From: a virus
Lineage: Duplodnaviria > Caudoviricetes
Virus record (IMG/VR): IMGVR_UViG_3300021952_000001
Coordinates: 32,001-96,000 of that record
Direction: 5' to 3' (one strand)
DNA: 64,000 nt
Both the position numbers and the translations under genes were made by a program. Below the pieces are notes generated by a model that was given only the letters and a program-made list of their open reading frames with translations, did not search any database and was not told the origin of the DNA. Below, one piece after another: positions 1,131 to 20,934 of this stretch. Each line of letters starts with the position of its first letter. Position 1 is the stretch's first letter.

Positions 1131-1343
1131 TTATTTGTTTTTTAGTAATATTGCTAAATGTCGTGATAACTTATTTACATCTGTAAATGTTTTTCCTGTT
1201 TTTATACACTTGAATGATGGGATACGTTTTTTACTTGCTGTACAATAACCTAATGTTGTTGTAACTAATTTTCCTAAATCATATTGCTCACCATTATGAT
1301 CAAGCATCATGTTTTGTGTTATTTTTCGTTTAATGACTGACAT
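1131..1343 (-). CDS. hypothetical protein with a degenerate C2H2-finger-like C-terminus
   Basis: 70-aa ORF packed against its neighbour; contains FKCIKTGKTF-x5-LSRHL. Confidence 0.6.
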   Translation of the reverse strand: MSVIKRKITQNMMLDHNGEQYDLGKLVTTTLGYCTASKKRIPSFKCIKTGKTFTDVNKLSRHLAILLKNK

Positions 1344-1365
1344 AATAATAATTTATTTATTGATT

Positions 1366-1395
1366 AAAAGAATAAGGGCTCCTGTTACAGAGCCC
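1366..1395 (-). terminator. probable intrinsic terminator
   Basis: Minus strand reads GGGCTCTGTAACAGGAGCCC followed by TTATTCTTTT. Confidence 0.55.
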
Positions 1396-1408
1396 ATCAT
1401 TCCCCTCC

Positions 1409-1555
1409 TTAATAACCCAACTTCTCAAGTTGATTTATATTGGCCTCTACAATATACACACCATGTGCTATTGTACATACAAATGCAACACTCATTGCAA
1501 ATGCTAATTGTCTGAACTGATAAAACTCAGTTGGTTTCATTTTAATTGTTTTCAT
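1409..1555 (-). CDS. small hypothetical protein, 48 aa (MKTIKMKPTEFYQFRQLAF...LEKLGY)
   Basis: Manual translation (below the ORF-track cutoff); preceded by the AATCCTTAATAAC leader motif and an A-rich start context. Confidence 0.65.
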   Translation of the reverse strand: MKTIKMKPTEFYQFRQLAFAMSVAFVCTIAHGVYIVEANINQLEKLGY

Positions 1556-1587
1556 GTTTTTATAGTTATTAAGGATTAATATAAAAT

Positions 1588-1615
1588 AAAAAAGGCTACC
1601 ATTTCTGATAGCCTT
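1588..1615 (-). terminator. intrinsic terminator closing the ncRNA cluster
   Basis: Minus strand AAGGCTATCA-GAAA-TGGTAGCCTT followed by a T tract. Confidence 0.75.
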
Positions 1616-1748
1616 GTTGTTGAGATTGGACTCTACTTCCTCCGTAAGTACTCAACTCCTTCTCTGTGTGGATAGGACTTAACATTCATGAGAAGCCAAA
1701 TTTCTCCAATGTCTGTTGCTGTACATATTTGACATCAAGCAACTGCTG

Positions 1749-1934
1749 TGATTGAGACAGGATTCGAACCTGTATTGTTGTACACCATCTTATGTATTGT
1801 TTAGGTGTTATGTACACCATCTATGCGGTAACTTTGCCAAGACTCTGACCATAGCAATTTTTTTATATCACAAATACATAAAGCGTCTACCATGAAAGGA
1901 CCTTTAATATTCCTAACTATTCCGCCACTCAATC
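1749..1934 (-). ncRNA. expanded tRNA-Leu-like element (186 nt) with insertions in the D loop and anticodon arm
   Basis: Perfect 7-bp acceptor stem GATTGAG/CTCAATC plus discriminator A; TGGCGGAAT...GGTAGACGC D-arm signature of tRNA-Leu; T arm ACAGG-TTCGAAT-CCTGT; extended anticodon stem TTATGTATT/AATACATAA enclosing ~70 nt with no clear 7-nt anticodon loop. Confidence 0.7.
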
Positions 1935-2088
1935 ATTTAATAGTCTTTCCTATTAGTCACCTATGTTATTATTCGCTATTTAATAAATGTACACGTAATG
2001 TAACAGAATTGCAGATTAGCACTTCATAATAACGGCCAACATTACAAGGTTTGTAAGGAATCAATGTATCTACAATTCCAAGTTCTAG

Positions 2089-2411
2089 TGGAGGCGGTGG
2101 GAATCGAACCCACGTCCAAACTACTTTCATTAATACAATTTATACAGCTTATTTAGGGTCAAGCTAGGCTTAACGATCCACCACTCTGTTTAATCTAACA
2201 GAGAAATCCTTATTCAATTTAGGCTGCTACAGCAACTTCTTCTCCCAATAGAGAGAATACTTTGTTCATGTTAGCTTCGATTTGTGCGTTTGCTCCTAGA
2301 GCTACTACACGAGTTGTTTTGTTGCCAATTAATTAAATTCACCTTAGTTTACAGTTATCTCTCTGGCTGATTGTATTAATTAGTGGTAACCTGTCAAAAC
2401 CAGTCGCCCCC
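2089..2411 (-). ncRNA. ssrA: tmRNA
   Basis: 5' end GGGGGCGACTGGTTTTGACAGG; 3' end GGACGTGGGTTCGATTCCCACCGCCTCCA; G3-U70 alanine determinant; internal tag frame 2326-2219 ending ...VAVAA-stop; CCA not encoded. Confidence 0.93.
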
Positions 2412-2416
2412 AATAT

Positions 2417-2915
2417 TCCTCATGTGAGGACACTTATCATTACTTTTTTAAATCTAGCACCCTCTTTCTTATATGACTGTTTCTTTATATTTACGCCCAT
2501 ATAAGAGTAGGGTCAAGCTGAGAACTCATTTGTGTTGTGTGGGAGTTGGAAACCCATTGCCACATTTCTCCAATTCCTTTCTCAAGGGAACAACACATCT
2601 ACCATTACTGATAGTATCTTTATGTAAAACTTATATGAACACCTCTACCCTTACTTGGTTTCACGATTATCGTTCTTTAGTTATTACAAAGGTATTCAAT
2701 GTTTAACCTATAGCTTCTAACAGATTATCAGTTCTGACACTTTACACAGCTTAGCTATTTTATTATAAAACCACACATCCATCAAGATTGGGATAAATCA
2801 TTAAAGTAGAGCTAACGCAAAAAGTCAGGTGTACGCTTTAACTATTATCATACTCAACAAACATAACACCTCTTGATAGTGTTATAAGTGAGAGTTTTCA
2901 TAATTTGCACTCACA
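2417..2915 (-). ncRNA. large structured non-coding RNA candidate (possibly GOLLD-like)
   Basis: ~500 nt with no credible ORF and dense stems: GTGAG/CTCAC, ATAACAC/GTGTTAT, TGTGTTG/CAACACA multiloop, TTGAGAA/TTCTCAG pseudoknot, TCTTATATG/CATATAAGA. Lies directly upstream of the tmRNA. Confidence 0.55.
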
Positions 2916-2956
2916 AATATTTTTAACTTACTTGTTTGTCTTTCTATGTGTGGTTT

Positions 2957-3076
2957 TTAATCATTATCATTAGCTTTCTTACATTCCTTACTACAAAATT
3001 CTTTGTTTGTAGGCTCTCCACAAAAAGCACATTCTCTTTCGAACTCTTCTGGTGGTTCATTATATGTATCTATCAT
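2957..3076 (-). CDS. 39-aa Zn-finger-like protein (CAFC...FCSKEC)
   Basis: Manual translation MIDTYNEPPEEFERECAFCGEPTNKEFCSKECKKANDND; coupled by ATGA overlap to the upstream 26-aa ORF. Confidence 0.65.
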   Translation of the reverse strand: MIDTYNEPPEEFERECAFCGEPTNKEFCSKECKKANDND

Positions 3077-3153
3077 GGGTTTGTTACCTTTGTTATCATT
3101 AATAATAAAAAGAACGTAAATAGTAATACAACACCTGCTGTTTTCTTCTTCAT
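3073..3153 (-). CDS. 26-aa hydrophobic peptide (MKKKTAGVVLLFTFFLLLMITKVTNP)
   Basis: Manual translation; first ORF after the 3176-3206 promoter; its stop overlaps the next start (ATGA). Confidence 0.45.
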   Translation of the reverse strand: MKKKTAGVVLLFTFFLLLMITKVTNP

Positions 3154-3175
3154 AAGCTTTAGTTTAATAGCCCTG

Positions 3176-3206
3176 CAAATATACATTACAGGGCTTAATT
3201 AACAAA
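3176..3206 (-). promoter_or_regulatory. Bacteroidota sigma-A-type promoter
   Basis: Minus strand TTTG-N19-TATATTTG matches the -33/-7 consensus TTTG...TAnnTTTG; the -7 box sits inside the inverted repeat AGCCCTG/CAGGGCT. Confidence 0.75.
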
Positions 3207-3210
3207 ATTA

Positions 3211-4581
3211 TTAAGAGATGATTTGTTCTCCTTGTTTAGAATATGCTGTAACAACATCATTTTCTTCCACCTTCACTTGCTTACCATCTGTTGCAACACA
3301 AAGATTTTTTAATTGATCGCTAAATTGCATTAATGATATAGCATTCACTTTATAAGGGAACTTCTCTGAATGCACTCTATCTTGACCATCATTGATGATT
3401 AAGATTTCTGGTTTCTCTTCTGACAAATCAATATCAAGATTGTGTAACTTATGATGATTAACAACTTGATCAGCTACATAGTTTACAATGTCACCAATTG
3501 CTGTTGTACCACCATCAGGTTCATTAGAGAACATTTGCCAGAATTGAATAACTTCCTCTCTATTAGTAACATGATGAAATTGAAGTTCTCCTGTGTGTTC
3601 AACAAAATAACTAAAGAACACTTCAGCTTCTCCTTTCATAACATATCTGAATCTATCTATAAGAATAGCATTAACCCAGATTTGTTTCTCATCATAATCC
3701 ATAGATCCAGAGTAATCCAAAAGAATAATAATCTTCTGCTTTTGTTCTTTTCTATCAACAGGAACATTAACTGTTAAGTCTTTAGTTAAGAACTTACTTC
3801 TAAAGTTAGGAAACATCTTTTGATATAGATCAATCATGTGAAACTGTGAATAGTCTCTCATAATCTTCTTAGCATACTGATCAGAGTTTGCTACAATCTT
3901 CTCCTCAACTTCTTTCTCCACTTTAAACTGAGTACCAAGATCACCAATGATAGAAATCTTATTCATGATCTCCATCTTTCTCTCTTTACTTAACTCATTA
4001 TAGTTTAGTTGTTCGTTGATTGTTGGATCAGAATATAATTCTCTATCAAATCCTAATGTCTTCTGCATATCTAGTTCATCTGACTTCTCACCTCCATCTC
4101 TTTCAGCATTACTACTTTGTAATTGAAGAAATATAGCAATTGCTTGCTCTAATGGTGTAAATCCTGGAATAAATTGATCATAAATGCTATCATATAGTTC
4201 TTTCTTTTGACTATATTGTCCTTTCAATTCATCATCTATATTTTCCCAGTCTGCAAGATCTTCTCTTAGATAGTCTTTCTCATCTAACATTTTGAAATAA
4301 CACACACGTGCTAACTCTTTGATAGTATCAATAGCCTCATCTTTCCAAACACTTGCTTTTCTTTTGATCTCAACCTTTGTTGGTGTAATATAAGACACAG
4401 GGTCTTTCACCATCAAATCAGCATCATCATCTTCAAATGCTGTTGCAAATGAAAAACCTGACCAACTAGTTCTAGACCAACTAGTTCTGCCTTTACTTTT
4501 GTAGCCACCACCATATGTGTAGCTATATGGATTATGGGCCTTTGAAGACCCATATCCATAATCAAATTCATCTTCCCACAT
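3211..4581 (-). CDS. von Willebrand factor A (VWA) domain protein, ViaA/CoxE-like partner of the AAA+ ATPase
   Basis: MIDAS motif LLDYSGSM, GGT, INDGQD; immediately downstream of a MoxR-type ATPase. Confidence 0.85.
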   Translation of the reverse strand: MWEDEFDYGYGSSKAHNPYSYTYGGGYKSKGRTSWSRTSWSGFSFATAFEDDDADLMVKDPVSYITPTKVEIKRKASVWKDEAIDTIKELARVCYFKMLDEKDYLREDLADWENIDDELKGQYSQKKELYDSIYDQFIPGFTPLEQAIAIFLQLQSSNAERDGGEKSDELDMQKTLGFDRELYSDPTINEQLNYNELSKERKMEIMNKISIIGDLGTQFKVEKEVEEKIVANSDQYAKKIMRDYSQFHMIDLYQKMFPNFRSKFLTKDLTVNVPVDRKEQKQKIIILLDYSGSMDYDEKQIWVNAILIDRFRYVMKGEAEVFFSYFVEHTGELQFHHVTNREEVIQFWQMFSNEPDGGTTAIGDIVNYVADQVVNHHKLHNLDIDLSEEKPEILIINDGQDRVHSEKFPYKVNAISLMQFSDQLKNLCVATDGKQVKVEENDVVTAYSKQGEQIIS

Positions 4582-8161: not shown

Positions 8162-8358
8162 TAGTAGTTCTGTTTATCATCATGAATTGTTGCTGCAAAA
8201 AGCATAGATACTGAAAATCCAAAAAAAGCAATAGCTCCTCTAAGATGTATATCCCATTGACTAATGTCAAATGATGCTGCTATAAATGCTCCTATTAGAT
8301 AAAACAATATCATGAAGCTCACGAATGTTATTATTGATTCTTTCATAAGATTATTCAT
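8161..8358 (-). CDS. small two-TM membrane protein
   Basis: Two hydrophobic segments separated by SFDISQWD. Confidence 0.65.
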   Translation of the reverse strand: MNNLMKESIITFVSFMILFYLIGAFIAASFDISQWDIHLRGAIAFFGFSVSMLFAATIHDDKQNY

Positions 8359-8387
8359 TATTATTCATTATTATTTATTTTTAAATA

Positions 8388-8534
8388 TTAATTTTCTGCT
8401 TCATCTAATTTCTGTTGTATGTAAGGCAAATAGTCTTTTAAATCATCGTCGTCAGATTTATTTATTAAATCATAAAGCCTTTTTAGATCCCAATATAAAA
8501 AATGAGTATCTAAATGTATAACATATTGGTCCAT
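8388..8534 (-). CDS. 48-aa hypothetical protein (MDQYVIHLDTHFLYWD...)
   Basis: Manual translation filling an intergenic gap on the operon strand. Confidence 0.5.
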   Translation of the reverse strand: MDQYVIHLDTHFLYWDLKRLYDLINKSDDDDLKDYLPYIQQKLDEAEN

Positions 8535-8765: not shown

Positions 8766-9026
8766 TTATTTGGTATATCTGTTATTTGTATCTGCGTATT
8801 GATAGTTCTTTCTATTAAGAATAAAATCCATGAGTGTATCATATCTATATTCTTCTATTGTACAAAATATAGTCTTGATATAATATGTACGATGATCTTG
8901 CCAAAGCTCTTCTAGATTCTCAAAGCTTAAGTCCCATATAACTAATACAATAGTTGCTATTGCAAGAATTATATATTTGGTCAGCATATATAATACACCG
9001 ACCAATGTTCTAACTATATACTTCAT
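8766..9026 (-). CDS. membrane-associated hypothetical protein
   Basis: Hydrophobic N-terminal third; tight packing with neighbours. Confidence 0.65.
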   Translation of the reverse strand: MKYIVRTLVGVLYMLTKYIILAIATIVLVIWDLSFENLEELWQDHRTYYIKTIFCTIEEYRYDTLMDFILNRKNYQYADTNNRYTK

Positions 9027-20824: not shown

Positions 20825-20898
20825 CGTGTGGTAGAGCAGTTGGTTAGCTTGCTGGACTCATAATCCAGAGGTCGTAGGTTCGAGTCCTACCCACGCAA
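20825..20898 (+). tRNA. tRNA-Met(CAT), initiator (fMet)-like
   Basis: Cloverleaf with C1:A72 mismatch and A11-U24; anticodon arm CTGGA-CTCATAA-TCCAG; T arm GTAGG-TTCGAGT-CCTAC; CCA not encoded. Confidence 0.92.
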
Positions 20899-20934
20899 CT
20901 AAAATAAACCAAACATTATTAATTAAACTACATT

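Follow-up and report, generated by a model that had tools for sequence, protein, structure and literature searches.

We report a modular island of RNA genes in the genome of a freshwater phage, at positions 1588 to 3206 of the 64,000-nucleotide stretch of DNA that was analyzed (the window; bases 32001-96000 of the 114,355-base virus record IMGVR_UViG_3300021952_000001, which has direct terminal repeats and is estimated to be complete). The island and all its features lie on the minus strand of the window (Table 1). We think it probable, on balance, that this is the RNA-gene island of a virulent phage with Flavobacteriia-type hosts, in which one transcript with tRNA-type punctuation would carry a transfer-messenger RNA (tmRNA), a tRNA-Leu-derived mimic, further conserved RNA modules called here U, L, S and T, and a folded RNA of unknown role, module O. 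Between promoter and terminator there are about 197 nucleotides (nt) of real small-protein coding sequence and about 1.35 kb of noncoding RNA. A preliminary description of this DNA had already reported a dense row of RNA genes on a single strand with only about 200 nt of coding sequence, and both statements hold: the row has a conserved promoter, one terminator and conserved modules, and its two small open reading frames (ORFs) are kept in a related locus, L008 (loci are given by number throughout). That description also called the row a self-contained operon, and here we disagree. L006 consists of promoter, tmRNA and terminator only; O is absent from L003, L006, L009, L012-L015, L018 and L019; in L008 the small ORFs are separated from the RNAs by two ordinary protein genes; and many contigs carry O without T. 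Because the modules recur independently, we regard the stretch as a modular island and not as a fixed operon.

Consider first module O. As read from its shortest copies, the fold comprises P1 with a conserved 12-nt loop, P2, P3 with a GUAA loop, P4, P4a with a bulged C and a GAGA loop, and P5; the junction AAUGAGUUCUCAGC is conserved, and an optional hairpin precedes P5. We measured covariation in two sets of sequences. Among 37 core sequences, 98.3% of cells pair (82.8% when shuffled) and 12 of 19 pairs change on both sides, a count reached in none of 500 shuffles; P3 is invariant in this set only because it is covered by the search word. A 109-position covariance model of the O core (R1), run on loci fetched via another anchor, gave 56 matches, 51 of them distinct, in 54 of 57 loci. 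In this second set 97.4% of cells pair compared with 71.6%, and 18 of 19 pairs, all six P3 pairs included, change on both sides (0/500 shuffles); the alignment was fitted to R1, which favors the structure. Over the full length of O the paired fraction is 92.7%, compared with 84.0% in shuffles, and 13 of 51 pairs change on both sides; P1, outer P5 and the AGC/GCU closure hardly vary, so covariation is silent on them. R1 scores 106 bits on the O of the window, which is the single copy in the phage genome. Two other loci, L104 and L118, hold two O-core copies each, about 250-350 nt apart (R1, 79.7 and 55.5 bits).

How widely does O occur? The 23-mer AAAGATACTATCAGTAATGGTAG of O is found exactly in 60 viral contigs. 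A 20-mer of the O 3' junction is found in 104 viral stretches; of the 80 listed, 23 were already in the 23-mer set. The family thus has members in at least 117 viral contigs, which range from fragments of 4 kb to 373 kb and include jumbo phages. Two exact-pattern scans of 185,579 bacterial and archaeal species, one genome each, found no copy. We conclude that O is a well-supported conserved folded RNA and, as judged by exact motifs, restricted to phages.

O has no Rfam match at the gathering score in the whole window, at E values up to 10 in positions 1300-3500, or at E values up to 0.1 in 8 other O loci; for U, too, the search of 1300-3500 at E values up to 10 returned no match. O, U and T, all without an Rfam match, are uncatalogued RNA families. 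The earlier suggestion of an undescribed system is therefore right for these three and wrong for the tmRNA, since phage tmRNAs were already known. In the literature search, which covered the main texts of openly accessible papers, no description of O was found beyond the phi14:2 preprint discussed below.

Perhaps O is a functional analog of GOLLD or ROOL, a multimer-forming RNA that acts on tRNAs or stores them during infection? The habit is the same, in that GOLLD and ROOL are folded RNAs of unknown function found in phage genomes beside tRNA genes (bioRxiv 10.1101/2024.12.08.627333). Homing endonuclease genes, moreover, are tolerated inside P4 of O (L005, L052 and L060). However, neither the GOLLD nor the ROOL model matched the window at the gathering score, positions 1300-3500 at E values up to 10, or 8 other O loci at E values up to 0.1; O is unrelated to them, resembles neither of their Rfam models, and occurs in Bacteroidota phages and, by exact motif, not in bacterial genomes. 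GOLLD and ROOL RNAs are about 600-800 nt long, and O is much smaller, at 159-411 nt in all copies except two with an inserted gene. We consider it very unlikely that O is such an analog.

The neighbors of O are informative about its possible role. A T-arm motif ends no more than 45 nt upstream of O in 7 of 51 loci (about 0.3 expected); on the downstream side one is present within 500 nt at 20 of 41 loci, compared with about 2.4 expected. Neighboring tRNAs and tmRNAs were also identified by ARAGORN calls. The order O, tmRNA, (mimic), T recurs in L004, L005, L007, L008, L053 and L064. Most O copies follow a promoter or leader module rather than a tRNA. Given these neighbors and the invariant junctions of O, we would rank a role in translation or tRNA metabolism first. 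We clustered 1,155 neighboring ORFs of O-bearing loci and found no RNA-related protein partner among the clusters, which include a MoxR/VWA pair, HNH-NUMOD4 nucleases, an exonuclease, VRR-NUC and a helicase. The commonest neighbor, at 18 loci, is a protein of about 200-300 amino acids (e.g., L025:4809-5708) without a Pfam family; its only PHROG match is weak and is to a family of unknown function.

The homing endonuclease genes inside P4 are of HNH/NUMOD4 type and replace P4a and P4b (L005:8745-9600, L052:10567-11200 and L060); similar nucleases lie near O in 10 loci. We also considered O as a group I intron and rejected this reading. There is no Intron_gpI match in the window, whereas a true intron in L004 scores 94.8 bits, and O lies between genes, after promoters, leaders or tRNAs.

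A member of the O family is present in a cultured phage. R1 matched the crAss-like Cellulophaga phage phi14:2 once, at 3111-3205 (56.4 bits), in a long, gene-poor gap between protein genes, with a tmRNA in the next gap. Two long intergenic regions of phi14:2 are reported to be transcribed early, persistently and above most genes, with no known function (Drobysheva et al., bioRxiv 10.1101/2020.03.07.982082). From gene-number mapping we infer that these are the two gaps seen here and that the "g004-g005 junction" of that paper is the O-bearing one, at about 2905-3589 of the phi14:2 record. The preprint offers neither a structure nor a family for these abundant transcripts. R1 matched none of four cultured flavobacterial phages (phi40:1, FpV4, Calle_1 and elemoA).

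Upstream of the tmRNA, the preliminary description had placed one "large ornate RNA." A conserved RNA is indeed there, but it is not a single unit: anchoring relatives on conserved words resolves at least three separately recurring modules, U, L and O. U recurs upstream of O in L024, L025, L047, L052, L054, L060 and L071. Its long-range helix, CCACACAT/ATGTGTGG, shows two compensatory variants among 5 distinct versions, and it has the internal pairings ATCAAGA/TCTTGAT and CAAACA/TGTTTG. Within U, a 15-amino-acid ORF at 2901-2854 (...CYVC) was rejected as coding, its conserved letters forming U helices. An internal transcription start near 2907, where a contig from one RNA library (X1, below) ends 7 nt after AATATTTG at 2921-2914, was dropped because the site lies inside conserved U, whose 5' strand (2953-2946) pairs with 2778-2771. 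Copies of leader module L, 86-98% identical, stand directly before O in L008, L023, L030, L031, L037, L046 and L053. In Flavobacterium phage elemoA the same module immediately precedes an annotated tRNA-Ala (L081:1501-1630); hence, it heads different RNA genes.

The tmRNA, which the preliminary description had recognized, is a true member of its family. It was called by ARAGORN and scores 93.3 bits against Rfam RF00023 (cut-off, 47), aligning to model positions 1-374 of 374. In the acceptor stem GGGGGCG pairs with CGCCUCC, giving the pair G3-U70; the T arm is GGGUUCGAUUCCC, the discriminator is A at 2089, and CCA is not encoded. The reading frame specifies the tag ANAQIEANMNKVFSLLGEEVAVAA, with its stop after a hydrophobic ...VAA tail. 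In the Rfam alignment, pseudoknot PK1 and its flanking helices align well, and the PK2-PK4 region is placed at low posterior probability. The hairpin in the 5' leader is conserved, with a compensatory variant in L004. Of spacer S, on the other side of the gene, a 38-nt piece recurs in L054.

Phage-encoded tmRNAs, such as that of Cellulophaga phage Calle, are known, and one has been published for a flavobacterial phage (PMC8776804). The element in the window resembles such phage tmRNAs (RF00023) in meeting the model and in having G3-U70, the T arm and the tag frame. It differs in its long, phage-specific tag (ANMNKVFSL...), common to related uncultured phages, in being embedded in a row of other RNAs, and in belonging to a phage without SmpB. 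Neither SmpB nor a CCA-adding enzyme was found in the phage genome; host factors would thus be needed. The tmRNAs of the window and of L003, L005, L006, L008, L024, L040, L053, L061, L064 and L068 have in common a long tag family, …ANMNKVFSL(L/I)…(V/L/M)AA, of 18-27 residues. In L004 (7953-8988) the tmRNA gene is split in the T loop by a group I intron (Intron_gpI, 94.8 bits at 8256-8479), the 3' exon resuming near 8969; the intron region has an open frame on the opposite strand, and L013 has an identical 3' exon junction. Bacterial tmRNA genes with introns are known (PMC11915505).

The second tRNA-like element of the island had been described as an expanded tRNA mimic and not an ordinary tRNA, and we agree. 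ARAGORN does not call it, it scores 23.3 bits against the Rfam tRNA model (RF00005; cut-off, 29) with only the acceptor and T arm aligned, and a 5-bp anticodon stem with a 7-nt loop was not found in it. Its tRNA traits are a perfect 7-bp acceptor stem, a T arm with GTTCGAATC, and a D arm, GGCGGAAU...UGGUAGACGC (GG present), like that of genuine tRNA-Leu genes of phages but interrupted by an insertion of 26 nt. Where the anticodon and variable arms would be, the element has about 105 nt of unrelated sequence; it encodes no CCA. Versions in relatives measure 69, 111 and 144 nt, the shortest with a 6-nt "anticodon" loop, and reach 37-48 bits against RF00005 only by skipping 54-61 nt or with the 6-nt loop; L006 and L007 have no mimic. 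The 46 nt of D arm plus insertion are found unchanged in L059 and L074, where the acceptor stem is another, compensatory one. Hence, the tRNA-shaped shell is kept and the decoding part is free to vary. In the middle of the mimic a 12-nt direct repeat, AGATGGTGTACA, occurs twice, 32 nt apart (1779-1822), which suggests a local duplication.

Between the mimic and the terminator lies a conserved module of 130 nt, T, that the preliminary description had missed. In 15 of 16 distinct loci T begins immediately behind the discriminator A, which belongs to a tmRNA in 6 of them and to a tRNA-like element in 9. In its hairpins 96.0% of cells pair, compared with 91.0% when shuffled. A further tRNA-like element follows T in L041 and L068. 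The only ORF in T (MNVKSYPH...) was rejected as coding: its ATG is ACG in 3 of 5 relatives.

Could the mimic, S, T, U and L be decaying tRNA genes, recombination scars, and leaders or trailers without a function of their own, carried along because phages often exchange tmRNA cassettes? The middle of the mimic differs in every relative and holds a direct repeat, the whole mimic folds no better than shuffles, the covariation of T is modest among copies that are close relatives, and the region is rich in homing endonucleases and introns. However, the tRNA-shaped parts of the mimic are intact, with the compensatory acceptor variants GAUUGAG/CUCAAUC and GUCAGG/CCUGAC, and the identical D arm with its insertion turns up in unrelated contexts. 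Identity in T is 80-97%, compared with 59-67% in the adjacent VWA protein (over five syntenic relatives), and the helices of T are kept, with 96% paired; U, too, shows compensatory changes. Decay therefore seems to us an improbable account of these modules.

The preliminary description had instead proposed a joint action of the RNAs against host defenses: the tmRNA would rescue ribosomes, while the mimic and the ornate RNAs would decoy anticodon nucleases or translation-arrest toxins. We do find tmRNA, mimic and folded RNAs together in several contigs, the tRNA-shaped parts of the mimic are conserved, and the context is that of a virulent phage, with no copy in bacterial genomes. Yet the decoy idea finds no support, and the anticodon region of the mimic speaks against it: this region is hypervariable in length and sequence, the versions measuring 69 to 186 nt, and a conserved 7-nt loop, the feature read by anticodon nucleases, is absent. 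The parts occur independently in relatives, and no defense or counter-defense gene is linked to them, the commonest neighbors being replication genes, homing nucleases and the protein of unknown family. We give this integrated counter-defense system very little credence.

The position of T and O recalls theta ribozymes, the minimal ribozymes like that of hepatitis delta virus (HDV) found at tRNA 3' ends in Bacteroidota phages, where the tRNAs have no encoded CCA (PMC10879173). In both cases, in Bacteroidota phages, a structured RNA begins where a tRNA-like element without encoded CCA ends. O, T or both might be self-cleaving or catalytic RNAs that mature the neighboring tRNA or tmRNA ends, the role proposed for theta ribozymes. 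Besides the theta precedent, the start of T at the base after the discriminator, the start of O, at 7 of 51 loci, a few bases past the 3' end of a tRNA, and the invariant junction nucleotides and GNRA loops of O, typical of compact tertiary folds, are consistent with this. However, T (130 nt) and O (258 nt) both lack the P1 and the double pseudoknot of HDV-like folds; in the sequences, bases 1-7 of T find no downstream complement with which to form such a P1. No Rfam ribozyme family matches at E values up to 10, and most O copies follow something other than a tRNA. Lacking the HDV-like P1 and an Rfam ribozyme match, T is no theta ribozyme in the sense of PMC10879173, though it occupies the same place. 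A catalytic role for O, T or both is, in our judgment, distinctly unlikely.

We return to the modular island and to the signals that bracket it. The promoter and the strong terminator were both part of the preliminary description and both stand. At 3206-3176 the pattern TTTG-19 nt-TATATTTG matches exactly, and the site is kept at the same place behind the VWA gene in 5 of 5 related contigs; in L006 the promoter directly precedes the tmRNA. The flavobacterial sigma-A -7 box has the consensus TAnnTTTG at -12 to -5 (PMC9723704). The -7 box of the island fits this consensus, and the predicted start site is near 3171. The box is embedded in a conserved palindrome, GCCCTG...CAGGGC, at 3194-3170. The terminator, with its 10-bp stem, is kept in L003, L011, L013, L019 and L053. 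A scan for sigma-70-type promoters gave 12 sites (15.0 expected) and is uninformative given the Bacteroidota host. The palindrome (CCCTG...TATATTTGCAGGG, 3170-3194) recurs before RNA clusters of several unrelated contigs (L004, L008, L023, L027, L053 and L061) and may serve as an operator or as a promoter element specific to phages.

Is the island transcribed? Parts of it occur in 24 sequencing runs, 21 of which are recorded as RNA. Three freshwater runs from three studies of 2018, possibly one campaign, contain 25-60% of its words, and their contigs match it without differences: 1748-2117, 2088-2403 and 2524-2907 in X1; 2088-2403 and 2495-2788 in X2; and 2091-2403 and 2525-2738 in X3. The first X1 contig bridges the tmRNA 3' end, spacer S and the mimic and ends at the mimic/T border, 1748. 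Adapter sequence adjoins 2088 and 2403. The small-ORF stretch (about 2938-3134) and T (1617-1747) have next to no contig cover, and these holes carry no inference. Depth in X1 is 7-84 on the RNA modules and 2.7-4.7 on contigs of flanking genes, per-contig figures that are unfit for ranking and give a hint only. The preliminary description had named metatranscriptomes and covariation across relatives as checks. In the first, RNA-library contigs cover the noncoding part of the island, the strand not being shown; in the second, O covaries at nearly every core pair, U has its two compensatory variants, and T gives a modest result. We take the contigs as supporting evidence for transcription, short of proof.

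How might the island work? Host RNA polymerase would start at the -33/-7 promoter, and the transcript would carry the two small proteins first and then U, L, O, tmRNA, S, mimic and T, up to the single terminator. Host RNase P may cut the 5' ends of tmRNA and mimic, and host 3' processing may cut after the discriminator A; these cuts would release tmRNA and mimic and simultaneously free O with its leader, S and T. Since module borders fall at tRNA-like ends (those of T at 15 of 16 loci; that of O, following a tRNA 3' end by a few bases, at 7 of 51), RNase P and 3' cuts are reasonable, as the preliminary description had inferred, and we regard processing at tRNA-like ends as plausible. Small stable RNAs released by tRNA processing enzymes include RNAs C and D of the phage T4 tRNA cluster and 3'ETS-leuZ, the 3' trailer of an Escherichia coli tRNA. 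The modules would resemble these as small stable RNAs of unknown or sponge function; hosts and phages differ.

Once released, the tmRNA would perform trans-translation with host SmpB and alanyl-tRNA synthetase, adding the phage-type 24-residue tag. O may bind a conserved host component of the translation or tRNA-processing machinery, a partner suggested by the invariance of its junctions. The mimic keeps the parts read by processing enzymes, by the CCA-adding enzyme and possibly by leucyl-tRNA synthetase, and is unable to decode.

Several observations weigh against reading the stretch as one processed transcript of functional RNAs. The RNA-library data are contigs, which cannot show starts, ends, strand, level or a single precursor, and DNA carry-over in these libraries is not excluded. 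The promoter pattern is found 4 times in the window, no more often than chance would give (3.28 expected; at least 4 in 46 of 100 shuffles). What ties O to the phi14:2 transcripts is a mapping of gene numbers. The whole mimic folds with a z score of -0.41 relative to shuffles. In T only 5 of 27 pairs change on both sides, a count that 53 of 500 shuffles reach, and the sequences are close relatives. Lastly, the modules occur apart in relatives, so their co-location does not imply that they act together.

The usual reading of phage tRNA clusters is that they aid codon usage; here, most of the cluster consists of RNAs unable to decode. The sequence of O is better conserved than the neighboring proteins and is present in contigs from lake RNA libraries, and because one member resides in phi14:2, which is in laboratory culture and whose intergenic RNA of this kind is reported to be very abundant, the function of O is directly testable. 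The mimic and T suggest that phages use tRNA-type punctuation to release RNAs other than tRNAs. A bolder reading, speculative and on present evidence unlikely, would have O, U, T and the mimic form an RNA toolkit, released from one precursor by tRNA-type punctuation, that acts directly on the host machinery of translation and tRNA maturation, whether as a new ribozyme, as an RNA-only assembly, or as a molecular mimic able to trap a partner of ribosome, RNase P, SmpB or synthetase type. If true, it would amount to a new functional class of viral noncoding RNA, common in Bacteroidota phages of lakes and seas.

Table 1. Features of the RNA-gene island, in order of the proposed transcript (window coordinates)
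Feature	Position	Strand	Description
Host sigma-A-type promoter	3176..3206	-	-33 TTTG at 3206-3203; -7 TATATTTG at 3183-3176
Small ORF 1	3153-3073	-	26 amino acids, hydrophobic (MKKKTAGVVLLFTFFLLLMITKVTNP); from ORF list
Small ORF 2	3076-2957	-	39 amino acids, CxxC...CxxxC pattern
Module U	2956-2759	-	Conserved noncoding RNA
Leader hairpin module L	2710..2758	-	ATAGCTAAGCTG...GAAGCTAT, 49 nt
Module O	2709-2452	-	258-nt folded RNA
tmRNA 5' leader	2412..2451	-	Small hairpin CCTC-ACAT-GAGG, read from sequence
tmRNA	2086..2411	-	ARAGORN call; Rfam RF00023
Spacer module S	1935..2085	-	79% identity to same position in L008
tRNA-Leu-derived mimic	1934-1749	-	Acceptor GAUUGAG/CUCAAUC, discriminator A, T arm GGUUCGAAUCC
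Module T, 3' trailer RNA	1748-1617	-	Four hairpins; 80-97% identity in about 20 loci
Intrinsic terminator	1582..1615	-	10-bp stem 1615-1592, GAAA loop, T-run TTTTATTTTA

The two small ORFs at the head of the island are probably real genes. Small ORF 1 has a 24-amino-acid counterpart at the same place in L008 and no match in a Pfam search; a longer, 37-amino-acid reading of it was rejected, as its start would precede the predicted transcription start site. The start of small ORF 2 overlaps the stop of ORF 1 (ATGA). Compared with its 39-amino-acid counterpart in L008, small ORF 2 has 6 synonymous and 4 nonsynonymous codon differences; it matches phrog_35839 (E value of 1.7e-10) and, by blastn, a hypothetical gene of Flavobacterium phage 1/32.

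Upstream of the island are genes for a MoxR-type ATPase (5603-4584) and a VWA-type protein (4581-3211), and downstream is a conserved 48-amino-acid ORF (1555-1409). By blastn, cultured Cellulophaga and Flavobacterium phages carry DNA that matches the tmRNA part of the stretch at 75-82% identity; the nearest relatives that share synteny are uncultured viral contigs. In L005 and L007 the Rfam motif DUF805b matches just over its cut-off of 35.6 (L005:7496-7528, 36.7 bits; L007:5786-5818, 38.3 bits), in the variable stretch that separates the VWA gene from the RNA cluster. The sole ordinary tRNA gene in the window, a tRNA-Met (CAT) at 20825-20899 on the plus strand, is remote from the island.

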